64,000 nt of DNA, taken from the NCBI GenBank assembly GCA_964436255.1, contig CAYTBW010000004.1, positions 2,685 through 66,684 on the forward strand, read 5' to 3'. The stretch's first letter is position 1. Each line of letters begins with the position of its first letter. The DNA comes from an uncultured Candidatus Saccharibacteria bacterium (lineage in GTDB: Bacteria; Patescibacteriota; Saccharimonadia; CAILAD01; JADZBC01). Shown piece by piece: positions 3,163-24,525 of this stretch. Position numbers and translations under genes: made by a program. The notes below the pieces were generated by a model. It had not been told where the DNA came from, did not search any database, and was given only the letters and a program-made list of their open reading frames with translations.

Positions 3163-4890
3163 TTAGCGTGCGTCACGTTTCAAAACACGAACTCGCTTCA
3201 TGAACCACGTCTCGATGTTATTAAACCTATCGCTCGGCTCGGAGATCTTACCCGCATCCGCCCCCTCCACACGGACATCTTGGCCGTAAAGATACAGCGG
3301 ACTATAAAGAAGTGCGGCGGGCACATCCTTTGACCACACATCCAGGAAGGAAGCAAACTTTGCGGCTCGCGTATTCGGGTCACGACTCAAGCGTGCTGCC
3401 TCTAGTAACTTATCTGCCTCAACGCTCTTATAATTAGATATGTTCAGCCCAGGGTCAGCAATCTGACTTGAGTGCCAGAACGAATACGCATCCGAATCTA
3501 TGCCTACGTTCTGACCATAGAGTAGCAAGTCGTAGTTTCGTGGTCGGACGTGATTTTGCTGCAGGCTGACGATGTCGGTTTCTTTGATTTCTACTGGTAC
3601 GCCAACGAGCTCTAATTGTTGAGCAATCTGCCTTGCTACTGTGCTATACTCCGGCGACTTAAGAGTAACCAGGCGCAATGGCTTTGTCGTTTTATTAGCC
3701 TGTAAAACCTTGGATGCGGCTACCTGATCATGCTGATAGCGAACAGCTTTTGGGTTGAATCCAGCCTGGCCGGGGAGTATTGGGTAGTACACCGGCACAG
3801 CTCGGCTCGAGAGTGAGCCAGCGATGATACTATCTCGGTCAATCGCCTGCGTTATTGCCTGCCGTACAGAAGTATTGGCGAGGTAAGACGTCTTAGTATT
3901 ATAGAACAGCCCTACGTAGGCCGGCAAACTATATTCGTATATCTTCAGGCTTTCATTCTTTTCTGCAGCTCGAAGCTGGTTGGGATTAAGCTGAGAGATT
4001 CCCATAATCTGCTTACGAGCATAGCCGTCGAGCAGTGCCGCAGGGGTCGTATAAAGCGCGAAGTGAACCTCGTCCATCTTTGGGCGTCCTCGGTAATATT
4101 CCGAGTTAGCACGCAAGGTAATGAGTCCCAAATCGCTACCGAAGTCGTCAAGCACATAGGGGCCGGTACCAATTGGTCTTTGGCTAAAAGGGTTAACCCT
4201 AAGTTGTGAAAGCTGGATTGAATCAAGCAAATGGCTTGGCAATATGCCTACCGTAGTTGCAGATAGAAATGCTGTATAGCTATTTGGCAAGACAAACTTA
4301 ATCGTCTGCTCGTTCACCACTTCGTACTTTATGCCCTGCCAATTGTAGGCCAGCGGAGACTTGCTATCCGGGTTCTGTATGGCGGCTACCGTGAATGCGA
4401 CGTCCTTAGCGGTAAACGGTTGACCATCGTGCCACTTTACGTCCTTACGGAGATAGAACGTATAACTCTTTTGATCTGCTGAGATATCCCAACGCTCAGC
4501 CAGATCAGGCTCTATCTTGCGATCGCTGCCAACCTTTGTTAAGCCATTAAAGATCAATCTATTTACGTCGCTTGTGGCAGTGTTCTCGGGCAGGATGGGG
4601 TTCAAAATCCTAACTTCCCCTAATAAACCTTCGGTGTATACTCCCCCTTGAACTGGCTGCGTGGTGACAAAAAATGTATCCAAGCTGCCTATTCCTGCAA
4701 CTACACCCCAAACAGATACCGCAACGACAACGAGCCAGGATACAAACATCCACCGCATTGGGCCAAGCTTCTGCCACGCTCCATATACGTGCCTTTCGAG
4801 ATAGTTGCTAAGCCAACGTCGGCCAACCCATAATTGCTTGCGTAAACGGCGGGACTGTCTATGCCACCTAAACTTTATATAGGACCACAT
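3163..4890 (-). CDS. ABC transporter substrate-binding protein (family 5, oligopeptide/dipeptide-binding type)
   Basis: 575-aa ORF; family-5 solute-binding signatures; probable real start at MRWMFVSWLVVVAV (about 4758), a signal anchor. Confidence 0.75.
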   Translation of the reverse strand: MWSYIKFRWHRQSRRLRKQLWVGRRWLSNYLERHVYGAWQKLGPMRWMFVSWLVVVAVSVWGVVAGIGSLDTFFVTTQPVQGGVYTEGLLGEVRILNPILPENTATSDVNRLIFNGLTKVGSDRKIEPDLAERWDISADQKSYTFYLRKDVKWHDGQPFTAKDVAFTVAAIQNPDSKSPLAYNWQGIKYEVVNEQTIKFVLPNSYTAFLSATTVGILPSHLLDSIQLSQLRVNPFSQRPIGTGPYVLDDFGSDLGLITLRANSEYYRGRPKMDEVHFALYTTPAALLDGYARKQIMGISQLNPNQLRAAEKNESLKIYEYSLPAYVGLFYNTKTSYLANTSVRQAITQAIDRDSIIAGSLSSRAVPVYYPILPGQAGFNPKAVRYQHDQVAASKVLQANKTTKPLRLVTLKSPEYSTVARQIAQQLELVGVPVEIKETDIVSLQQNHVRPRNYDLLLYGQNVGIDSDAYSFWHSSQIADPGLNISNYKSVEADKLLEAARLSRDPNTRAAKFASFLDVWSKDVPAALLYSPLYLYGQDVRVEGADAGKISEPSDRFNNIETWFMKRVRVLKRDAR

Positions 4891-5108
4891 TACTTAACAA
4901 CGAGACCGCCCAATAAGCTCCCGACAAAGATAATAGCGATCACGATGGTAGCGTAAAATAAAGCCTTCTCTGCACCGCGCTTAGACCTATAGAAGTTTCC
5001 TTCGCCTCCCCACGCACCACCTAGGCCTGCACCTTGGTTCTGCAAAAGTATTACTACGGTCAAGAGCACCGCGCTAATTAGGGTTACGTACTGTAGGATT
5101 TGCTTCAT
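4890..5108 (-). CDS. secG: preprotein translocase subunit SecG
   Basis: 72 aa, two TM helices, LLQNQGAGLGGAWGGEG glycine-rich loop typical of SecG. Confidence 0.65.
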   Translation of the reverse strand: MKQILQYVTLISAVLLTVVILLQNQGAGLGGAWGGEGNFYRSKRGAEKALFYATIVIAIIFVGSLLGGLVVK

Positions 5109-5461
5109 GCTTTTTCCTCCTTTATTAAACTAACTGCGGCATAGTTCACGAGCCAAACTATAGTGACCGCACCGAGTGCTGACCAGATTGACGTTATATC
5201 AAACGGCTTATAGATAGCACTTGTCAGGTAAAGCATAGCGGTATTAACTATAAGTGTAAAGAGCCCCAGCGTAAGCATTATAGCGGGCAATGAGAGTATG
5301 ATCGCCAAAGGTCGGATTAATGCATTAACTAAACCGAATATTAAACTCGCGACGATCAGTACTCGAAGCTTATCTTGATATTGAATCCCAGAAAACAATT
5401 GAGCAGCTATGGTGAGGCCGATAAAGTTCGCCGCCCAACTATATAGAAAGCGTTTTAGCAT
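5105..5461 (-). CDS. DUF360 / phage-holin-4-like small membrane protein
   Basis: 118 aa, four predicted TM helices, resembles the YvlD-type family. Confidence 0.45.
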   Translation of the reverse strand: MLKRFLYSWAANFIGLTIAAQLFSGIQYQDKLRVLIVASLIFGLVNALIRPLAIILSLPAIMLTLGLFTLIVNTAMLYLTSAIYKPFDITSIWSALGAVTIVWLVNYAAVSLIKEEKA

Positions 5462-5480
5462 TCATTAATTATACCATATA

Positions 5481-6971
5481 TCAGGTGTGACGCTTAGATC
5501 CTGAACTATGGATTGACTCATATATTAGACCCGCTTTTACGCCAACTATTTTCTCCAATTCAACCAAGGAAGCCTCTCGCACGCCACTCACACTGCCGAA
5601 GCTACGGACTAACTTTCGCCGAGTAACCGGCCCCACCCCTGGTATTGAATCAAGTAGCGATGTCTTGGTCCTTTTGTCTCTCAGATGAGTGTGGTAGCTA
5701 ACCGCAAAACGGTGTGCCTCATCCCTCACCCGCTGCAAAAGCTGGAGCGACGGTGAGCTATGTTTAATTCTTAACGTCGTGAAGGCCTCCTCCTCCAATA
5801 GCTCATCACCTTCTTGCGGCCTTATAGTGGCCGTAGAGGAAACTTGGTCCTTAATACGCACCACCTCTTCGTAGCGCTTTGCCAAACCGAAACGCGCTAT
5901 GTTAATCCCGAGCTCCTCTAAAACCTCGCTGGCCGCCGAAAGCTGGCCTTTGCCGCCGTCGATCAGTATTAAGTCCGGCTTCCTCCAATCATGCTTTCCG
6001 CTAAAGCGTCGGCGCATTGTCTCTGCCATCATAGCAAAATCATTTGGACCTTTTGTCCGCATTTTAAAGTGCCGATATTCCCGCTGATCGGGCAGTCCGT
6101 TTGTAAAAACAATCATACTACTCACGGCGTCACCGCCAGCAAAGTTCGATATATCATAAGCCTCAATCCTCCCCGGGGGACCGCTCAGCCCAAACCGATC
6201 GCTCAGCCCATTAAGGGCCTGATCGAGCGTAAAATCGAACGTCTCCTCTTTGCCGAACACACTCTTCTGGGAGAGAGATTTTAATGCCAAGTATTGGTCG
6301 CGCAACTTCGCTGCTTCCTCGAACCTCTTGGCCTTAGCAGCCTTCTTCATCGCGCCCTCAATCTCTCGAATGAGCTTCATGCTATCACCCCTAAGGATCA
6401 TAGTGAGTTTGCGTAAGTTAGCTTTATAGTCCGCCGAGCTTATATCTGGAGCCGGTGAAACACCGATTTGATGTTGCAATGCACTCACCTTGGGCCAAGC
6501 TGCGTCTGTGATGTAAGGGAATATTCTGCGCAGATACCGCATAGCTGAACGAACGCTTCCGCCGGATACAAATGGGCCAAAGTACGTCGCCTTATCGTCT
6601 TGTGGCCTACGGACATAACTCACACGAGGAAAGTCTTCCTGCGTAGTAATCTTAATATAGAGGAAGTTTTTGTCATCACGCAGCTCGACGTTATAGAGGG
6701 GCTTATGACGCTTAACGAGTTCTGATTCTAAGAACAATGCCTCAATTTCCGAGCTCGTTACAATCCAGTCGACGTCGGCTATGTTCTCTACAAGTATCGG
6801 TGTTTTTGTGTCTTTGTGATGTTTTTGAAAATACGAAGATACCCTACGTTTTAAGATGGAAGCTTTTCCCACATAGATAATTTTACCCTTCGCATCTTTA
6901 TAGAGATATACACCTGGCTCTGCAGGGAGCTGCTTGAGCTTGTCTTTAAGCTGTTGGTTCATAAGATCCAT
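5481..6971 (-). CDS. uvrC: excinuclease ABC subunit C (short form)
   Basis: N-terminal GIY-YIG (GVYLYKDAKGKIIYVGKA), UvrBC-interaction region, C-terminal HhH (LLDSIPGVGPVTRRKL). Confidence 0.9.
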   Translation of the reverse strand: MDLMNQQLKDKLKQLPAEPGVYLYKDAKGKIIYVGKASILKRRVSSYFQKHHKDTKTPILVENIADVDWIVTSSEIEALFLESELVKRHKPLYNVELRDDKNFLYIKITTQEDFPRVSYVRRPQDDKATYFGPFVSGGSVRSAMRYLRRIFPYITDAAWPKVSALQHQIGVSPAPDISSADYKANLRKLTMILRGDSMKLIREIEGAMKKAAKAKRFEEAAKLRDQYLALKSLSQKSVFGKEETFDFTLDQALNGLSDRFGLSGPPGRIEAYDISNFAGGDAVSSMIVFTNGLPDQREYRHFKMRTKGPNDFAMMAETMRRRFSGKHDWRKPDLILIDGGKGQLSAASEVLEELGINIARFGLAKRYEEVVRIKDQVSSTATIRPQEGDELLEEEAFTTLRIKHSSPSLQLLQRVRDEAHRFAVSYHTHLRDKRTKTSLLDSIPGVGPVTRRKLVRSFGSVSGVREASLVELEKIVGVKAGLIYESIHSSGSKRHT

Positions 6972-7002
6972 TATATCAACTATTGCTAGTTTCTAATATG
7001 CA

Positions 7003-7031
7003 TTGCATAACTGTTTCGCCTGGGCTATACT
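7003..7031 (+). promoter_or_regulatory. sigma70-like promoter TTGCAT-17-TATACT, divergent from uvrC
   Basis: TTGCAT 7003-7008, 17-nt spacer, TATACT 7026-7031; followed by GGAGG at 7058-7062. Confidence 0.45.
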
Positions 7032-7142
7032 CTAGTTGTCCCGTCCATTCGAGCCCTGGAGGCAAAGATCCTTACCAAACAGTCCCTTATCTTCCAGCTG
7101 CAACTTGCCCTCCACGGTGAGCACGACAGTCTGGTTCCGCAC

Positions 7143-7451
7143 TTGGCCCTCGTTCTATCTGACATCCTGGTGGCCCAGCGCGAGATGCTCACAATCGTAT
7201 CCACTGAGTCGGCGACAGAGGAGGAACGGCCCGACGAACCACCATGGGAGCTTCTCGATGCTCAGGCTCGCATTGCTGCTCGCTTCGATCAAGCTGTGCA
7301 CCGCTTCGGGGACAAGTTGAACATAGAACACTTCTCCGACCTGGTTCAACGTTCACTCGGCAGCGCTGAAGAAAACGGCGGTCACGAGCGAGAACGCATC
7401 CTGCGCGAGATCGCCGCCGAGCACAACACCACGCCCATCGAGCGTCCTTGA
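7143..7451 (+). CDS. hypothetical acidic protein in GC-rich island; start uncertain
   Basis: ORF track (TTG start at 7143). Reading frame is open from 7011; a GGAGG lies 5 nt before in-frame ATC at 7068; alternative ATG at 7185. GC about 57% vs about 46% in flanks. Confidence 0.4.
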   Translation: MALVLSDILVAQREMLTIVSTESATEEERPDEPPWELLDAQARIAARFDQAVHRFGDKLNIEHFSDLVQRSLGSAEENGGHERERILREIAAEHNTTPIERP

Positions 7452-7452
7452 A

Positions 7453-7491
7453 GGGTCGCAGTAACAACCGTTACTGCGACCCTTTCCCTTT
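7453..7491 (+). terminator. rho-independent terminator
   Basis: GGGTCGCAGTAAC-aaccg-GTTACTGCGACCC followed by TTTCCCTTT, immediately after TGA at 7449-7451. Confidence 0.7.
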
Positions 7492-7516
7492 GATAACTAC
7501 TTTTTGTCATAGTGTA

Positions 7517-7545
7517 TTGACATTATTTGCAAACTGTGCTATCAT
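7517..7545 (+). promoter_or_regulatory. sigma70-like promoter TTGACA-17-TGcTATCAT (extended -10)
   Basis: TTGACA 7517-7522, 17-nt spacer, TG at 7537-7538, TATCAT 7540-7545; in AT-rich 140-bp spacer inside the island. Confidence 0.6.
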
Positions 7546-7575
7546 ATTTGGCACGTTCCTAGTTTTTCTACTTTG

Positions 7576-7585
7576 AATGTACATT
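7576..7585. promoter_or_regulatory. 10-bp perfect palindrome AATGTACATT just downstream of predicted TSS
   Basis: Read directly: gaATGTACATtt. Confidence 0.35.
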
Positions 7586-7603
7586 TAAAACCGACTACTT
7601 ATT

Positions 7604-7619
7604 GTCAATATGTATTGAC
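7604..7619. promoter_or_regulatory. operator-like inverted repeat GTCAATA-tg-TATTGAC
   Basis: 7-bp perfect arms; half-site TATTGAC also overlaps the -35 at 7515-7521; followed by TTGACtcTTGAC direct repeat. Confidence 0.45.
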
Positions 7620-7724
7620 TCTTGACCTGCGGATACCTGTAAAGCAACGCCTGCTTTGCGGCTATCCGTACTGGCCAAGAGTCTGCCAACGGAATTCACC
7701 CCAAAAGACTCACTTGGAGGGCCC

Positions 7725-8489
7725 ATGGCCATCACCGAAGACACCCAGTCCATCCTCGCGATCACCGCGACCGACACCGCCAAGGAGGCGATCATCATCG
7801 CCCTCGCGGGCGGTGTGCGGTTCCAGACCGTCGACGAGGCCCTGGCCTGGTCGGAGACGGCCCAGGCGGCCAAGTACCTGTTCGGCACCCACTCGAGCGC
7901 TGCGAGGAACCTCTTCCAGCTGCGCGAGCAGCTGAAGCGGGAGAAGTCGGCCCAGAGCGCCCTGGCGCGCCTGAACCGACTGTGGCTCAACGGCACCGTG
8001 CAGACGGCGCTGTGGAAGGCCTTCGTCCGCGAGGACATCCGCAAGGCCCTCGTGGCCGAGCTGAAGGAGGCCAGCCGCAAGGACATCGAGGCCCGCAACG
8101 CGGTCCTCGAGAAGGTCATTGCCCGGCTGGACGCCAAGGATGCCGAGGAGACCGAGAAGGAGGAGCTGATCGCCCAGATCAAGCCCCTCGTCGAGGACTC
8201 CTACTTCCTGAACGTCATCGTCGGCCGGGACAGCCTGCGACCCGACAGCCTGCGGGCGATCGACAAGATCATCGCCGGCAAGGGTGTGAGCGTCCACCTC
8301 GGGCAGCTGCGCGGCCTGGCCAAGCACCTCGGCAACATCCACCGCAGCTCCTCCGGGAGCGACGGTGGCCGCCGTGGCAAGGGCAAGGACCCGCGCAAGG
8401 CCGAGAAGGCGGCGCGTGACCGGGCGATCCGGGCACGGATGCACCAGCCCAAGGGCCAGGAACCGTCCAAGCACGGCAAGAAGAAGTAG
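7725..8489 (+). CDS. hypothetical protein (254 aa) with central coiled-coil and Lys/Arg-rich C-terminal tail; GC-rich island
   Basis: GGAGG 7716-7720, ATG 7725 (in frame with track ORF 7656..8489); tail GRRGKGKDPRKAEKAARDRAIRARMHQPKGQEPSKHGKKK; GC about 62%. Confidence 0.55.
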   Translation: MAITEDTQSILAITATDTAKEAIIIALAGGVRFQTVDEALAWSETAQAAKYLFGTHSSAARNLFQLREQLKREKSAQSALARLNRLWLNGTVQTALWKAFVREDIRKALVAELKEASRKDIEARNAVLEKVIARLDAKDAEETEKEELIAQIKPLVEDSYFLNVIVGRDSLRPDSLRAIDKIIAGKGVSVHLGQLRGLAKHLGNIHRSSSGSDGGRRGKGKDPRKAEKAARDRAIRARMHQPKGQEPSKHGKKK

Positions 8490-8497
8490 TCGGCCTA

Positions 8498-8538
8498 GCC
8501 GGATCCACCAGAGCAGCGTTGCTCTAGGTGGATCCGGC
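8498..8538 (+). terminator. long GC-rich hairpin (18-bp stem, one bulge) after island gene, no U-tract
   Basis: GCCGGATCCACCAGAGCA-gcgt-TGCTCTAGGTGGATCCGGC; second hairpin CCCGACC...GGTCGGG at 8539-8577 enclosing TAGAC-ata-GTCTA. Confidence 0.5.
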
Positions 8539-8583
8539 CCCGACCCAAGTTTAGACATAGTCTAGATTTAGGTCGGGATTACA

Positions 8584-8613
8584 AAAACACCACTCAAAAT
8601 AAGTGGTGTTTTT
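8584..8613. terminator. bidirectional intrinsic terminator (uvrA 3' end)
   Basis: AAAAACACCACT-caaaataa-AGTGGTGTTTTT with A/T runs on both sides. Confidence 0.7.
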
Positions 8614-8630
8614 GCTTTGGCTTTATAGCC

Positions 8631-11447
8631 TTACGTAAGGAGCTTTTGTAAATATTGGCCGGTGTGGGATTTAACAACCTTTGCAACCTGTTCCGGGGTA
8701 CCTTCGGCAATGACTATGCCGCCGCCGCTTCCGCCTTCTGGGCCTAGATCGATCAGCCAATCAGCACACTTAACAACGTCCAGATTGTGCTCGATGATCA
8801 GCATGGAGTTCCCCATGGTCACGAGTGCGTTAAGCACTTCTAGAAGTTTCTTGACGTCTTCAAAGTGCAAGCCGGTGGTTGGCTCATCTAGAATGTAGAG
8901 CGTTCTACCAGTGGCTCGCTTGGAAAGTTCGCTCGCCAGCTTAATACGTTGCGCCTCCCCACCCGACAGCGTGGTGGCAGATTGTCCTAGGCGGATATAA
9001 CCAAGTCCTACACTGCGCAACGTCTCGAGCTTACGATACACTGCTGGAATATTACCAAAGAAATCACAAGCATCCTCCACGGTCATCTCCAAAACATCGG
9101 CAATAGTCCTGCCCTTATATAAAATCTCTAAAGCTTCACGGTTATAGCGCTTGCCATGGCACGTTTCGCAGGTTACGTACACGTCTGGCAAGAAGTGCAT
9201 TTCAATCTTGATAATCCCATCGCCCTTACACGTCTCGCAGCGGCCACCTTTTACATTAAAGCTAAACCGACCAGAGCTGTAGCCACGAATCTTGGCTTCC
9301 GGCACCATGGCAAATAAATCGCGGATATCGGTAAAGGCACCTGTATATGTTGCTGGGTTTGATCGCGGTGTACGGCCAATCGGAGACTGGTTAATGTCGA
9401 TTACTTTATCCAAGTGCTCGGTTCCTAGGATCTCCTGATGCTTGCCAGCTGGCTCCTGCGCTCGATGGTACTCCTGGCTTAGCTTGCGGGCCAATATATC
9501 ATTTATGAGTGATGACTTGCCAGATCCAGACACCCCAGTTACGACCGTCATGATGCCGAGAGGAATATCGACCGATACGTCTTTTAAGTTATTTTCTGTT
9601 GCACCGACAATCCGAAGTTTCTTATCGGTTGGCTTGCGGCGTTGTTTTGGCACCTCGATTTTCTTAGCACCGCTCAGGTACTGGCCCGTCAAAGACTCTT
9701 TGCTCTTAGCGACTTCATCTGGGGTGCCAATAGCTATGACCTCACCGCCATGCTCGCCGGCAAGTGGACCGATGTCAACTACAAAGTCACTCGCTCGAAT
9801 AGTGTCTTCGTCATGCTCGACTACAATTACCGTGTTGCCGAGGTCTCGTAAGCGCTGTAGCGTACTAATCAATCTATCGTTGTCGCGTTGATGCAGGCCA
9901 ATTGATGGCTCATCAAGAATATAGAGCACACCCATGAGGCTGGAGCCAATCTGCGTTGCCAAACGAATACGCTGCGCCTCACCGCCAGCCAAGGTGTTAG
10001 CGCTACGATTCAATGTTAGGTAATTGAGACCAACATCATTTAAGAACTTAAGCCGCTCGCTAATCTCTTTAAGGATTTGCGCGGCTATTTGCTTTTCCTG
10101 CGAGTTCAGCTCAAGCCCAGAGAAAGTCCTTAGCGCATCTTCGACCGACATGCTGGTAAGGTCGGCAATCGACTTACCGTTTACGGTAATGGCCAACACT
10201 TCAGGCTTAAGACGCTTGCCGTGACACTCCAGGCACTCTTGTGTCGTCATGTATCGCTCGATCTCTTTCTTCACAAAGTCACTATCACTCTCACGATAAC
10301 GGCGTTCCAAATTAGGAATAATACCTTCAAAGGTTGTTTTATACGTACGTCCGCCCGGCCCGCGCACGCCAATTTCTTCGTCCCCTGTTCCATACAGCAA
10401 AATCTCAATTTCTTTAGTACTCAGCTTTTCGACCGGCACATCAAGCTTGAACTTGTGCTTCTCTGCGACTGCTTCGAGCAATTTGGTATACCACGTCATG
10501 CGCGAAGTAGTGCGGCTCCATGGACGAATAGCGCCCTCGACGACGCTAAGGCGACGATTCGGAATGACCATGTCGGGGTCTACGATCAAAAGCGAGCCCA
10601 AGCCAGTGCATTTAGGACAAGCCCCATGTGGCGAGTTAAATGAAAACAGTCGAGGCTCAATTTCTGGGAGTGAGAACCCGGAATCTGCCGTAGTGTAATG
10701 CTCGCTAAACACGCGCTCGTCACCAGTATCATGATCCTGTATGGTGATTACGCCTTCGCCCAAATGCAGTGCCTGCTCAATAGACTCGACCAAGCGCTGC
10801 CCGGGTTCATCTGGGTCAAGTGTCATTCGATCAACCGCTACCTCGATGGTGTGCTTCTTCTGCCTATCGAGTTCCGGTACTTCATCAATTGGCATCAGAG
10901 TGCCATTTAGGCGTACTCGGGAATAGCCTGCCTTTTGGATTTCACTTAGCAGGTGCCTGTGTTCGCCTTTTTTGTCTTTTACAATCGGAGCGAGAATAAC
11001 AATCTTTGTACCTTTAGGATACTGGCGGACCGAGTCCACGATCTGTGCTGGAGTCTGCTTGGTTAGGACCTCGCCTGTCGTGGGGTCATGCGGCACACCG
11101 ATGCGCGCGAAAAGTAATCGCAAGTAGTCATAGATCTCCGTAACCGTGGCAACGGTTGAACGTGGGTTGCGTGAACTAGACTTTTGGTCGATCGAGATAG
11201 CCGGACTCAGACCATCAATCTGATCAACATCGGGCTTTTCCATCAGGCCAAGGAACTGCCTGGCATAGGCACTAAGGCTCTCTACATATCGGCGCTGGCC
11301 TTCGGCGTAGATAGTATCGAATGCAAGTGAGGATTTTCCGGAGCCGGAGAGACCCGTAATTACCACTAGTTTGTCGCGGGGTATTTCGAGGTCTATGTTT
11401 TTGAGGTTGTGCTCGCGAGCACCCTTAATGACGATTTTATCAGCCAT
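8631..11447 (-). CDS. uvrA: excinuclease ABC subunit A
   Basis: 938 aa; two ABC ATPase modules ([12 protein letters not shown]; [13 protein letters not shown]), zinc-finger CxxC pairs, LSGGEAQRI signature repeats. Confidence 0.95.
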
Positions 11448-11516: not shown

Positions 11517-12536
11517 CTAGGATGGCTTGTCGTCGAAATATGACTCAAAAGTTGGCTCTAAGCTCATGACGTGAGAGCCGCCATAAACCACAAAGGGCTT
11601 CTTGCCTTCCTGGATTGCGTCGGCCACGGTAGTGAAGATGTGGTGGTCGCGAGCTTCTGTCATCATGGTGTGAATTTCTGCCAATCTGCCCTCAGAACGT
11701 GGATCCCACGCCTTTGCAAGGACCGCACGATCCCCCATCGAGCTAAAGCCAATCGTACCATCTTCTCGCAGCTGAAGCTCTGGCAGGCCAAGCTCAGCCA
11801 AGTCGGCATTAAGCCTCTCCGCCAAGCCCCTAGCCTGGTTACGGAGAGCACTTAATATTTCTGGGTTTTGCTGAATGATCCTCTGCTTCTCGCTGTCAGG
11901 AATATCTTGAAAGCCTTCGACCCCATTCACGACTGCTTCTCCGTAAATCTGCATAGTAATGTCCTCTGGAAGAGGCGCAGAAGCTTCGTGAGTTAGATTT
12001 CTAATCATTAAAACAAGAACCAGCTCTTCCCGTCTCACACCGCGAGACTCGACGAAAGATGCAATATCTGCGTCGGAAGGCTCCCCGGTCACAGCTTCGA
12101 CCCCGTCCCTTGCCGCCAGGAACTGCATCAGCCCTGATTCACTCGCGCTACCAATCGCAGTCGACCTATCTGCTATGTACTTTTGCTCTCGAGCATCGCC
12201 TTCGAACACGACAAGCCGTTCTTCGGGCGAGGTAGCTGCCAAATATTCATTGTATGCCGACTCAATGTCAGAGTGGTTGCGCGACTCGGGGTTAAAATCA
12301 TGCAGATCCACTGCCCCGCCCTCCACTAGGCCTGGTGCATTGGGGTCTTTGGCTGCCTCGCCCGTAGCAGGATCGATCTTCTCGGTATTGATACTTGCAA
12401 TCAAGGTTAAAGAGCCATCCCCAAACTTATCAATCTTCGCCGTGCCAGCTGCTACCCTCTCATCGTTTCTTCGCGTGTATTCATCACCATATCCAGCATA
12501 TTCAGTCCAAGCTTCTGCCCGTCGGTTCGTTTCCAC
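11517..12536 (-). CDS. hypothetical protein between uvrA and uvrB (possible TraB/GumN/ChaN-like C-terminus)
   Basis: 339 aa, GTG start abutting uvrB stop region; C-terminal VVYGGSHV resembles GumN/TraB-type motif (weak); GC about 52%. Confidence 0.45.
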
Positions 12537-12629: not shown

Positions 12630-14618
12630 TCATTTGCTCATCCTCTTGCCCTGAATCACATCATCGATCTCACCGAGCTGATCACGTAACTCGGCGGCCT
12701 TTTCAAACTGTAGGTTCGCAGCGGCCATTTGCATCTGCTCCTTAAGCTGACGCTGTAAGCACTTCAACTCGTCCTTGGGCACTTTGGCAAAGTCGATCGC
12801 CTTCACGTCAGCCTTCTCTGCCTCCAACTCCTCATGCATACGCTCTTCAATCGCCTTACTGATGCTCGCTGGAGTTATGCCATGGGTCATGTTGTAATCC
12901 TCTTGGACCTTGCGGCGATCTCTCGTGACTTTTATTGCGCGCTCCATGGAGCCCGTCATGTTATCCGCATACATAATCACTGTGCCTTCCTGGTGGCGAG
13001 CCGCACGGCCTATCGTTTGTATGAGTGAACTCTCGCTGCGCAAAAATCCTTCCTTGTCTGCGTCAATTATTGCGACCAAACTCACCTCTGGTAAATCCAA
13101 ACCCTCGCGTAACAAGTTAATCCCAACAACTACATCGTACACTCCAAGGCGCAAGTCTCGCAGAATATCAGTCCTATCAAAGGTGGCAACATCGCTATGC
13201 AAGTATTGAACTTTAATACCAATGTCCTGCAGGTACTCAGTCAGGTCCTCCGCCATTCGCTTGGTAAGCGTCGTAACCAAAGAGCGCTGACCCTTACTGA
13301 TTCGCTTGCGTATCTCAGCTATGAGGTCGTCCACCTGATGTTCAACTGGCCGCACCTCAATAATCGGATCGAGTAATCCCGTAGGGCGAATGATCTGCTC
13401 TACAACTTTGCCGGAGCGGCTGATCTCGTATTCATTCGGCGTGGCGGAAACATAAATGGTCTGATTGATGTGGCGATCAAACTCGGTGAAAGTGAGCGGC
13501 CGATTATCTAATGCTGATGGCAAACGGAAGCCATGTTCGACCAGTATCTCCTTGCGAGCGCGGTCGCCATTATACATGCCGCGTACCTGCGGCAGAGTGA
13601 TGTGCGACTCATCTACAAACATCAAGTAATCGTCAGGGAAGTAGTCCATCAGCGTCGCGGGCTGATCGCCAGGCTCACGATTCGTCAAGTATCTGGAGTA
13701 GTTCTCTATGCCTTTTACAAACCCCGTTTGCTGCATGATTTCTAGGTCGTACTTTATCCTGCTCTCGAGCCTCTGAGCTTCAATCAGCTGGTCGTTTGCC
13801 TTAAAGTGCGCCACGCGCTGCTGAGCTTCAGTTTGGATTTTAACCATGGCCTTTTCTAACTGTTCGCGCGGAGTCACATAGTGCTTAGCTGGGAAAATGC
13901 TTAGCTCGTTAAGGGACTTTGTAATCTCGCCGGTTAGCGGATCGATTTGCACGATGCGCTCGAGCGAGTCGCCAAAGAACTCTAGGCGGTATGCGTTCTC
14001 CTCCCCAATCGGGAAAATGTCTACATTCTCGCCGCGAACACGAAATACGCCACGTTCAAAACTCGTGTCGTTTCGAGCATACTGAATATCATTGAGCTGG
14101 CGCAGCATCTTGTCTCGCTTACGAAGCTCGCCGACCTTGAGGTGCATTGTCATGTCGGCATAGTCGCTTACGCTACCAATACCATAGATGCAGCTTACTG
14201 AAGCAATAATAATTACATCCCTGCGACTCAAAAGCGAGCTTGTTGCAGCGTGACGCAAGCGATCGATTTCCTCGTTAATCGCGCTGTCTTTTTCAATATA
14301 CGTGTCACTCCTAACTATGTATGCCTCTGGTTGATAATAGTCAAAATAACTAACAAAATAATGCACGGCATGCTCTGGAAAAAACTCTTTGAACTCGCCA
14401 TAAAGCTGGGCAGCTAAGGTTTTATTGTGACTCAGAATGAGCGTAGGGCGATCTGCCTTGGCAATAATGTTTGCCATCGTGAATGTTTTGCCCGAACCAG
14501 TCACCCCCAGAAGTGTTTGCTCGCGCATTCCGTTAGATAGCCCTGTACATAAGCCATCAATGGCAGCTGGCTGGTCGCCATTTGGTTCGTATTTAGATTG
14601 CAAATTGAATAGTGACAT
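12630..14618 (-). CDS. uvrB: excinuclease ABC subunit B
   Basis: Helicase motifs ([12 protein letters not shown]), UvrB interaction domain, C-terminal UVR domain ([13 protein letters not shown]); start taken at MSLFNLQ (ATG 14618). Confidence 0.95.
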
Positions 14619-14822
14619 AAAACTATTATAGTCTATCTGGACAAAACAACAGCATACAAAAAACCGACTCATTGAGCCGGCATATTTGTGTGTCGCTAAC
14701 TACTGCACTGTGTGGAACTAAACCCAAACTCACCCTATGCACCTATCATAACAAAGCATCCTTGGACGAGCATTGGCGATAGAGCAAAAAAAGCCTAGGT
14801 GTTTTTAGTGCTTTGCCCATGG

Positions 14823-23865: not shown

Positions 23866-24525
23866 GTGGACCCAATCATCATTACCATTGACGGCGGAGC
23901 AGCAACCGGCACGTCTTCGTTGGCCAAAGCCCTGTCGAAGCATCTCGGCATCCCCTATATGAACACAGGCGAGCTCTACCGTGGCGTCGCCTTTCTTGCC
24001 CGTCAGCAAGGCCTGGACTTCGACTCTCCGGCGGCGATGGCTGCCATCGCCGAGATGATTGAGTTCGAGTTCCACGACGGCACGGTCATCGCACTGAACG
24101 GTCAACCCGTCAGCCAGGAAGACCTGCGCTCCGTCAGCGACATTGTGGAGCGTGTGTCGCCGCACCCGGACGTACGGAAGCACATCCAGGGCTGGCAAAC
24201 CCGCTTTGCCCAGACCAACAACTGCGTACTCGAAGGACGCGACCTGGGCAGCACCGTCTTCCCGAACGCCGCGTTCAAAGTCTTCCTGACCTGCGAGGAC
24301 ACAGAGCGGGCCAAGCGACGGTCGAACCATGAAGGACGCGTGGTGACCGTTGATGAGATCTTGAAGCGAGATCGAGCCGACGCCGAGCGGGACCACTCGC
24401 CCATGGTCTGCCCCGCAGAAGCACATCGCTTCGATACCACCCATACGAGCACGCCTGAGCTCGTGGGGATGGTGGAACGGCTGCTCATCGACATGCCAGG
24501 CGTCTGGGATCGGCTGAACAGCTAG
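23866..24525 (+). CDS. cytidylate kinase homolog with degenerate P-loop (Walker-A lysine replaced)
   Basis: 219 aa, GTG start; aligns to Cmk (ITIDG..., GRDLGSTVFPNAAFKVFLT, ERAKRR, RDRADAERD) but P-loop reads GGAATGTSS instead of GPSGAGKGT; GC about 60% in a 45% context. Confidence 0.7.
   Translation: MDPIIITIDGGAATGTSSLAKALSKHLGIPYMNTGELYRGVAFLARQQGLDFDSPAAMAAIAEMIEFEFHDGTVIALNGQPVSQEDLRSVSDIVERVSPHPDVRKHIQGWQTRFAQTNNCVLEGRDLGSTVFPNAAFKVFLTCEDTERAKRRSNHEGRVVTVDEILKRDRADAERDHSPMVCPAEAHRFDTTHTSTPELVGMVERLLIDMPGVWDRLNS

Follow-up and report, generated by a model that had tools for sequence, protein, structure and literature searches.

A GC-rich, hypervariable gene family at the uvrC–uvrA junction of Saccharibacteria, whose third-position composition and predicted end-closed mRNA appear to be maintained by selection

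Local GC excess in a bacterial chromosome is routinely read as foreign, and the question raised here is whether that reading holds for a short segment between two DNA repair genes. In a stretch of 64,000 nucleotides (nt) from a Candidatus Saccharibacteria lineage known as a metagenome-assembled genome (contig CAYTBW010000004.1; this whole stretch is called the window), two plus-strand open reading frames (ORFs), gene 1 and gene 2, lie between uvrC and uvrA, which are both on the minus strand. The initial annotation described these ORFs as a GC-rich cassette on the strand opposite to the host genes and took it for an inserted regulator-plus-effector module. The segment itself was found where it had been placed. 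The locus is more unusual than a simple foreign insert, though not in the way that was proposed, as the excess of GC at third codon positions (GC3) of gene 2 and an mRNA closed from its 5' to its 3' end appear to be maintained by selection. With moderate confidence, we regard gene 2 as a resident, clade-restricted gene whose extreme GC3 would be an adaptation of its RNA, namely a folded and end-closed mRNA, and not a foreign trace. Other contigs and loci used in the comparison carry L-numbers (L011, L015 and so on).

The composition of the segment was compared with that of its surroundings. Both flanking genes have a GC content of 0.49–0.50 and a GC3 of 0.52–0.53, and the remainder of the window encodes the usual core chromosome (LeuRS, SMC, UvrD, TGT, FtsA, a histidine kinase and cmk). 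Gene 1 has a GC content of 0.59 with a GC3 of 0.66. Gene 2 reaches 0.68, distributed over the three codon positions as 0.655/0.435/0.949 (GC3 0.95), and uses AAG for 24 of 24 lysines and CAG for 11 of 11 glutamines. The earlier figure of 57–62% GC for the segment was correct as to the rise and too low for gene 2, where 300-nt windows run up to 0.70, the maximum of the whole window (mean 0.499, standard deviation 0.041). The spacer at 7480–7640 has a GC content of 0.35. An antisense ORF at 7710–8558 (282 amino acids, aa), which is in phase with gene 2, was considered as a gene and rejected, its GC at the three codon positions (0.91/0.46/0.65) not being gene-like. It stays open because TTA, CTA and TCA codons are avoided in gene 2.

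Gene 2 belongs to a new, hypervariable gene family that is restricted to Saccharibacteria. A word-indexed search recovered three clusters of this family, and an exhaustive profile (hidden Markov model) search of 1.84 billion representatives recovered 10 and no more. There was no match to gene 2 in Pfam, PHROGs, NCBIfam, PADLOC, PDB sequences, viral contigs, phage records or plasmids, and scans of viral-contig and metagenome-contig collections with the family alignment gave no confirmed relatives. A profile of the tail only had no match in a database of 5.8 billion sequences, probably because it was too short and compositionally biased. The earlier remark that neither product belongs to a recognized family held up in these searches (Pfam, PHROGs, NCBIfam, PADLOC and PDB sequences). 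Members of the family occupy at least three sites: the uvrC–uvrA junction (window, L011, L015, L103), a position between GroEL and PGI (L099, L107) and a position beside an HIT gene (L101, L109). Every family contig with readable context has a GC content of about 50%. A functional tie of gene 2 to nucleotide excision repair was considered and rejected, since its relatives sit between GroEL and PGI or by the HIT gene.

The junction was then compared across relatives, a check which the initial annotation had suggested. Scanning a genome collection with UvrC placed the lineage among Candidatus Saccharibacteria. The exact gene 2 protein is encoded by 12 contigs that come from different samples, and on each of them it lies between uvrC and uvrA. 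Within the genus-level clade, all four of the deep lineages sampled (window, L011, L015 and L103) have gene 2 at this site. In a set of 16 related species, with UvrC 53–64% identical, the junction was empty in L027 and L031 (38–80 bp), held only a small divergent ORF in L023, L025, L029 and L033, and held unrelated cargo in L020–L022, L030 and L032. The empty or differently filled junction in distant Saccharibacteria indicates that gene 2 is an addition specific to one genus-level clade. The initial annotation would have taken an orthologous cassette of the same composition in all relatives as a mark of native genes; such a cassette is present in 4/4 sampled lineages of the clade and not in the more distant species. 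More generally, the uvrA–uvrC junction acts as a hot spot at which lineage-specific genes are found. In L020, L021, L022 and L030 (~4100–6550), it encodes a membrane-anchored protein of ~690–710 aa and a membrane protein of ~125 aa, and in L032 it holds ORFs of 470 aa and 300 aa.

The GC excess of gene 2 is a property of the family. All 10 members have a GC3 of 0.82–0.96 (0.95 in the window, 0.96 in L011, 0.88 in L015 and 0.95 in L103, with L099, L101, L105, L106, L107 and L109 in the same range), compared with 0.38–0.64 in neighbor genes. At four-fold degenerate sites, pairs of deep gene 2 alleles differ by 0.44–0.65, compared with 0.45–0.58 expected at saturation, and these sites are still almost only C or G. 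Exchange between C and G is saturated while A and T continue to be avoided, and therefore the GC3 bias is maintained and is not the fading signal of an import. Synonymous sites of the flanks are saturated between deep lineages, a distance over which the signature of a donor would have decayed. The excess had been read as a sign of recent foreign origin, which does not fit its persistence in all 10 clusters through saturating synonymous divergence.

Recent horizontal import would make gene 2 the cargo of a high-GC donor (an actinobacterial host, a phage or a plasmid) taken up by a competent epibiont, with its GC content as the donor's signature. The codon usage of gene 2 is indeed like that of Actinobacteria, with its lysine codons all AAG, its glutamine codons all CAG and its high GC3; the junction is empty or otherwise filled in more distant Saccharibacteria, and transfer of the gene 2 unit from one lineage to another is demonstrable. 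Saccharibacteria are also naturally competent and grow on Actinobacteria (PMC10633639). However, no homologue was found beyond Saccharibacteria-type contigs of ~50% GC among the 1.84 billion representatives, with no phage, plasmid or viral match, and AT-rich sequence makes up the promoter and the leader's first 70 nt, which are as conserved as the flanks. Four deep alleles and the members at two other sites keep a GC3 of at least 0.82 despite saturated four-fold sites. Between uvrC and uvrA there is no integrase or transposase ORF, no att site, no flanking direct repeat or direct-repeat scar and no target duplication, and import leaves unexplained why the coding sequences fold better than their synonymous permutations (see below). 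We consider this origin distinctly unlikely and do not accept that a recent import produced the composition; between lineages of Saccharibacteria, however, exchange is evident.

GC-biased gene conversion at a recombination hot spot could drive third positions to G and C with no benefit to the RNA. An increase in GC3 associated with recombination is documented in bacteria, the locus is a mosaic exchanged between lineages, and GC at the first and second codon positions of gene 2 and in the adjoining gene 1 is also somewhat raised. The size of the shift, from 0.52 to 0.95, is nevertheless far above the reported effects of this process, AT-rich spacers (GC 0.35) persist inside the exchanged block, and gene 1, which also recombines, has a GC3 of only 0.66. 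Gene conversion predicts neither the placement of G/C codons, which favors pairing, nor the duplexes between the 5' and 3' ends described below. It may contribute to the GC3 of gene 2; as the whole explanation it is quite improbable.

To what extent the codons of gene 2 favor RNA structure was assessed by permuting synonymous codons within each coding sequence, which leaves the protein and the codon counts unchanged. The z-score for the fold of gene 2 was −4.83, and those of the other nine family coding sequences were −3.85, −2.57, −4.44, −4.88, −9.6, −2.82, −3.69, −3.64 and −1.18, so that 9/10 fold much better than their permutations. Control values were −1.55 to +1.58 for ten segments of the window and −1.86 to +2.68 for eight high-GC genes of Streptomyces phage phiC31. 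An Rfam scan of 6900–8700 returned sub-threshold chance matches only.

The signals around gene 2 were examined in the window and in its relatives (Table 1). The promoter with its TG extension, the AT-rich spacer, the ribosome-binding site GGAGG-N4-ATG and the two hairpins followed by the uvrA terminator were all as first described. A consensus-type promoter is readable at eight family loci (window, L011, L015, L103, L099, L101, L107 and L109); in L106 and L105, either the contig does not extend far enough or no promoter can be made out upstream. The "operator-like palindrome" TTGTCAATAtgTATTGAC, which had been pointed out in the spacer, is not conserved in L011, L103 or L015. A long leader hairpin, with differing sequence, occurs at the equivalent place in every locus with enough upstream sequence. 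The leader motif, given as CCGTACTGGCCAAGRGTCTGCCARCGG, is nearly invariant in all four junction alleles despite a protein identity of 32–36%. The leader region also contains one copy of a 26-nt direct repeat (ACTACTT(T/A)TTGTCA..GTATTGAC; 85% identical) found at 7496–7521 and 7594–7619 of the window. The first copy overlaps the −35 element of the gene 2 promoter and the second overlaps the 5' closing arm in the leader, and this repeat may represent a promoter element that was duplicated, or a second option for pairing.

Complementarity between the two ends of the gene 2 transcript was scored by an ungapped local complement search, as RNAduplex applied to long flanks gave uninformative, sprawling duplexes. 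A 5'–3' duplex of 10–16 bp was found in 9/9 loci with enough flank, and the arms have four unrelated sequences across the subfamilies. The pairing of the window is the same in L011 and L103 and is compensated in L015 (CCAAC/GTTGG vs. CCGAC/GTCGG), and where the L099 duplex has a G-C pair, L107 has A-U. In the other subfamilies, the 5' arm lies ~20–50 nt downstream of the predicted start and the 3' arm lies at or after the 3' hairpin. The case for the closing duplex is made by its recurrence in 9/9 loci, its position and its compensation.

Complementary arms that bracket the unit in 9/9 loci could also be DNA-level ends of a small mobile cassette, or the exceptionally structured RNA could itself be the main product, with the ORF secondary. 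The unit is, however, single-copy and syntenic within each lineage, is accompanied by no transposase-like protein and no target duplication, and has a promoter that lies outside the arms and yet is always present. The strong three-base periodicity in GC (0.655/0.435/0.949) and the conservation of the ORF, its Shine–Dalgarno sequence and its C-terminal motif speak for a protein-coding role, and we regard both versions of this idea as extremely unlikely.

The explanation that we favor, an RNA adaptation of a resident gene, can be set out as follows. A consensus-type sigma-70 promoter would drive a gene 2 mRNA of ~1 kb, which would start with a terminal stem-loop, followed by the ~30-bp hairpin within a leader of 172 nt. 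Its coding region would be selected, via synonymous codon choice, for near-complete base-pairing, and its 3' end would consist of stable hairpins. A 10–16-bp duplex between the leader and the region of the stop codon and 3' untranslated region (3'UTR) would close the mRNA end to end. Closed in this way, it would resist both 5'-end-dependent and 3'-exonucleolytic decay and so be long-lived and abundant, with structure-gated translation, and the G/C-ending codons would serve the structure of the mRNA. The protein combines a hypervariable helical body with a conserved C-terminal module ending in an Arg/Lys-rich helix and tail, and its body would be exchanged between lineages by recombination within a conserved frame. 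The stability, expression level and ends of the transcript, and the function of the protein, are what we infer from these features. The product that we favor is a nucleic-acid-binding or translocated protein, which would be under diversifying selection and made from a stable, highly expressed mRNA.

Several observations weigh against this explanation. The family member L105 has a z-score of only −1.18, and codon-context effects can inflate permutation z-scores in general. The junction-type closing duplex, at 10–13 bp, is alone not significant (p ~0.03–0.16 per locus), independent compensatory events are few, and the 3' arm overlaps the conserved Lys-Lys-stop codons. The evidence for RNA structure is wholly computed. 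Between the window and L011, gene 2 is less diverged at four-fold sites (0.26; saturation 0.49) than the flanks, which fits recent exchange as well as it fits constraint. Selection for structure need not push GC3 to 0.95, and recombination-linked GC bias could contribute. Lastly, fast evolution is unusual for the protein of a gene that would be very abundantly expressed.

The protein sequence was considered next. As first reported, gene 2 encodes 254 aa with a strongly basic tail (pI 10; tail charge ~+11). All family members share a C-terminal module of ~90 residues, which includes …AG-x-G…L… and ends in G-x-x-GKGR(D/S)PRKA-x-K-x-ARDR-x-IR-x-x-M-x-x-PKGQKP-x-x-G-KK, and their N-terminal bodies are hardly alignable, with total lengths of 106–334 aa. 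Among three deep junction lineages, the proteins of gene 2 are 32–36% identical, compared with 91–94% for UvrA and 77–81% for UvrC. Conservation of the promoter, leader and 3' spacer matches that of the flanks, unlike that of the coding body. This extreme divergence within a conserved regulatory frame, together with the exchange of alleles, suggests that the body is under diversifying selection. The polybasic C-terminal module probably binds nucleic acid or acts as a translocation signal.

A more specific role for the protein is that of a substrate of a Patescibacteria type IV secretion system (T4SS) or of another contact-dependent export route, in which the C-terminal module with its positively charged tail would be the signal and the body an effector acting on the host bacterium. 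Being a matter of protein function, this possibility can hold alongside the RNA-level explanation. The family architecture would fit it, with N-terminal bodies that do not align and a C-terminal module that is conserved (106–334 aa across the family), as would the very fast divergence of the body, the exchange of alleles and the lack of any signal peptide or membrane segment in the gene 2 protein. T4SSs are widespread in Patescibacteria and their substrates are unknown (PMC12102498). Yet no T4SS gene was present among the ORFs checked in the window (64 kb of the genome), the module resembles no known secretion signal or domain in sequence, an immunity-like partner is not regularly found next to the gene, and the extreme structure of the mRNA would be left unexplained. 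We consider this role unlikely, though compatible with the rest of the account. More speculatively, and as something of a long shot, the family could be a chromosomally encoded "self-contained RNA" system, in which a nuclease-resistant, end-closed and nearly completely paired mRNA of ~1 kb would form a ribonucleoprotein with its own Arg-rich-tailed helical protein, to be stored for host-free dispersal or exported to the actinobacterial host, for example via a T4SS. If so, the G/C-ending codons would serve both the durability of the RNA and its translation in a high-GC host, and the system would be a bacterial counterpart of capsid-like packaging of an own mRNA or of T-DNA-like, host-directed genes.

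Gene 1 was investigated separately. It has an open frame starting at 7011, in which the first TTG, at 7143, corresponds to the mechanical ORF call of 102 aa. The non-canonical ATC at 7068, which gives 127 aa, is the most likely start, because it lies 5 nt past the GGAGG, L017 has an ATG there and protein conservation reaches upstream of the TTG at 7143. The ATC codon is kept in L010 and L011. With this start, the product is small and acidic (pI 4.96), in agreement with the initial annotation. The expression signals proposed for gene 1 were only partly borne out: the promoter-like TTGCAT-17-TATACT, the GGAGG and the terminator hairpin are present, but the −35 element matches the consensus at 3/6 positions only and was not reported by the consensus scan. 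The homologues of gene 1 are the same protein and one 87% relative only. It occurs in two barely alignable types, type A (window, L010, L011 and L017) and type B (L015 and L103). More distant Saccharibacteria have small divergent ORFs next to uvrC; we do not accept these as demonstrated homologues of gene 1 (hhalign probability 0.5%) and treat them as analogues in position only. In the N-terminal part of gene 1, a patch of ~40 nt (window 7085–7125 vs. L010 179–219) carries ~17 differences between strains that are otherwise ~97% identical across the cassette, and this hypervariable patch looks like a short recombination tract.

The two genes had been presented as one module, a regulator-effector, toxin–antitoxin or anti-phage defense pair in which the acidic gene 1 product would control or neutralize the basic gene 2 product. 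They are adjacent on the same strand, have products of complementary charge (pI 4.96 vs. 10), and are both ORFans and both hypervariable. The comparison of L015 with L017 contradicts a coherent module, as the two loci are 98–100% identical from the stop codon of gene 1 through gene 2, with flanks at 77% and unrelated gene 1 types. The gene 2 unit was therefore recently exchanged between diverged lineages independently of gene 1, and gene 1 types A and B are found in free combination with the alleles of gene 2. The two genes have separate promoters, with a strong terminator between them, and family members at the GroEL–PGI and HIT sites have no gene 1 homologue adjacent. Toxin–antitoxin models of NCBIfam gave at best a RelB/ParD hit at 14.8 bits against a cut-off of 60, Pfam gave no match, and PADLOC defense models gave only noise (BrxA, E 0.041; Cas1, E 0.037). 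Neither an integrase or terminal duplication nor any defense, toxin–antitoxin, phage or plasmid homology was found that would bear out the suggested defense, toxin–antitoxin or mobile-element cargo. A functional pair is highly improbable, and gene 1 stands apart as a small acidic ORFan whose recombination is independent of that of gene 2.

Table 1. Coordinates of features at the uvrC–uvrA junction of the window, with the closing arms of related loci.
Feature	Position	Strand	Basis or remark
uvrC	5481–6971	−	
Putative gene 1 promoter, TTGCAT-17-TATACT	7003..7031 (TTGCAT 7003–7008, TATACT 7026–7031)	+	Read from sequence; kept in L010, L011
Gene 1 Shine–Dalgarno sequence, GGAGG	7058..7062	+	Conserved in L010, L011, L017; ATG then follows in L017
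Gene 1, 127-aa acidic ORFan, probable ATC start, type A allele	7068..7451	+	pI 4.96
Gene 1 terminator hairpin, 15-bp perfect stem then TTTCCCTTT	7451..7484	+	Inverted-repeat analysis; stem kept in L011
Gene 2 promoter, TTGACA-17-TG-n-TATCAT	7517..7545 (TTGACA 7517, TATCAT 7545)	+	11/12 consensus matches and TG extension
Predicted 5'-terminal stem-loop of gene 2 mRNA	7553..7580	+	Minimum-free-energy fold; transcription start inferred from −10
5' arm of closing duplex, CCGACTACTTATT	7591..7603	+	Invariant in window, L011, L103
Long 5'UTR hairpin, ~30 bp	7617..7683	+	z −5.7 vs. dinucleotide shuffles
Conserved leader motif, CCGTACTGGCCAAGAGTCTGCCAACGG	7666..7692	+	Nearly invariant in four junction alleles
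Gene 2 Shine–Dalgarno sequence, GGAGG-N4-ATG	7716..7720	+	Read from sequence
Gene 2, 254-aa all-helical protein, GC3 0.95	7725..8489	+	Member of new family; pI 10
Conserved polybasic C-terminal tail, residues 211–254, GGRRGKGKDPRKAEKAARDRAIRARMHQPKGQEPSKHGKKK	8355..8486	+	Net charge ~+11; family-wide; helix predicted at residues 223–239
3' arm of closing duplex, AAGAAGTAGTCGG, spanning the stop codon	8481..8493	+	Complementary to CCGACTACTTATT
Two GC-rich 3' hairpins	8498..8538 and 8539..8577	+	Present in L011, L015, L103 with changed stems
Bidirectional intrinsic terminator common to uvrA	8582..8614	.	Terminator scan and inverted repeats
uvrA	8631–11447	−	
Closing arms of L099, L107: 5' GACAAAGTGTTTGGA, 3' TTCAAGCACTTTGTC			
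Closing arms of L101, L109: 5' GAAAAGGAAGAG, 3' CTCTTCCTTTTC			
Closing arms of L106: 5' GCAAAGAGAAAGCAA, 3' TTGCTTTCTCTTTGC			

Some further genes were noted near family members and elsewhere in the window. In L099, three small ORFs (160, 92 and 146 aa; 5488–6850) lie directly downstream of the gene 2 relative P0006. Their GC3 is 0.80–0.83, compared with ~0.5–0.6 for the contig, and the 92-aa product has a very basic tail; the 146-aa ORF has a homologue in L107 with a GC3 of only 0.65. L107 also encodes a large serine recombinase (Resolvase, Recombinase and Zn_ribbon_recom domains; 13421–14755), ~4.7 kb downstream of the gene 2 relative P0011 and by an EVE-domain protein. A second GC-rich plus-strand gene amid minus-strand genes was found at 23866–24525 of the window (GC 0.62, GC3 0.76), followed by a GC-rich hairpin. 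Its product is a (d)CMP kinase (TIGR00017, 140.6 bits; cut-off 135.55). With a synonymous-permutation z-score of −1.08, it lacks the RNA-structure signature of gene 2, and here a housekeeping gene may truly have been replaced by a foreign one. Between uvrA and uvrB, on the minus strand, an ORF of 339 aa (11517–12536) has no family and only a weak APH(3')-like match (17.9 bits). It is 58–72% identical between lineages, compared with 91–98% for UvrA, and its position is kept out to L029 and L031. In L001, from the same strain, uvrC is called in two pieces (421 and 86 aa; 7358–8849), pointing to either a frameshift or a faulty assembly of that sample.

Composition-based calls of horizontal gene transfer (HGT) would misclassify the gene 2 family, because its GC3 stays above 0.8–0.95 over the long term in genomes of ~50% GC and its codon placement favors pairing. 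If the structural predictions are true, this is a clear case of a whole-mRNA architecture (terminal hairpin, leader hairpin, structured coding region, 3' hairpins and 5'–3' closure) that is conserved while the protein sequence has become almost unrecognizable. As obligate epibionts, Saccharibacteria interact with a host through factors of which few are known. For such a factor, or for a lifestyle-specific nucleoid or RNA-binding protein, the gene 2 product makes a tangible candidate, being strongly promoted, hypervariable, subject to exchange among lineages and equipped with a conserved polybasic module at its C terminus.

Known systems resemble parts of this locus. Genomic islets acquired by HGT share with it the local jump in GC, the opposite strand, the absence from distant relatives and the exchange between lineages. 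Unlike these, gene 2 has neither a donor nor mobility genes and has not ameliorated over a divergence that reaches saturation, its unit contains AT-rich control regions of native type, and the anomaly tracks the gene family and not the location. At the protein level, substrates of VirB/D4-type systems have C-terminal signals with a positive charge, and a VirD4-binding domain (XVIPCD) is conserved at the C terminus of Xanthomonas effectors. Gene 2 is like these in its conserved basic C-terminal module, its hypervariable N-terminal part and its fast evolution; it is unlike them in that it shows no sequence similarity and no linked secretion or immunity genes were seen, and its translocation is putative. 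A further shared point is a T4SS-bearing phylum (PMC12102498).

A different likeness is to peptides that bind RNA through an arginine-rich motif, such as lambda N and HIV Rev and Tat. Gene 2 likewise encodes a short predicted Arg/Lys/Ala-rich helix, PRKAEKAARDRAIRARM, beside an mRNA with conserved hairpins. In gene 2, however, the motif is C-terminal and lies inside a longer motif (…PKGQKP…), there is no detectable homology, and RNA binding is putative. At the RNA level, pairing between the 5' and 3' UTRs controls the fate of bacterial mRNAs, as in icaR of Staphylococcus aureus (PMC3868564) and hbs of Bacillus subtilis (PMC5737220). Gene 2 differs from both, and would go much further than either, in that its coding region also appears to be selected for pairing, with a GC3 of 0.82–0.96 in a genome of ~50% GC, and in that its architecture, here computed only, is kept across a protein family at several loci with unrelated arms. 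Its arm also does not obviously mask the Shine–Dalgarno sequence, unlike that of icaR. What gene 2 shares with both mRNAs is a structured leader with a segment complementary to one at the 3' end, for which a role in RNase access and in the coupling of translation would be expected here too. As with hbs, the product is basic, and that of gene 2 would be expected to be abundant.

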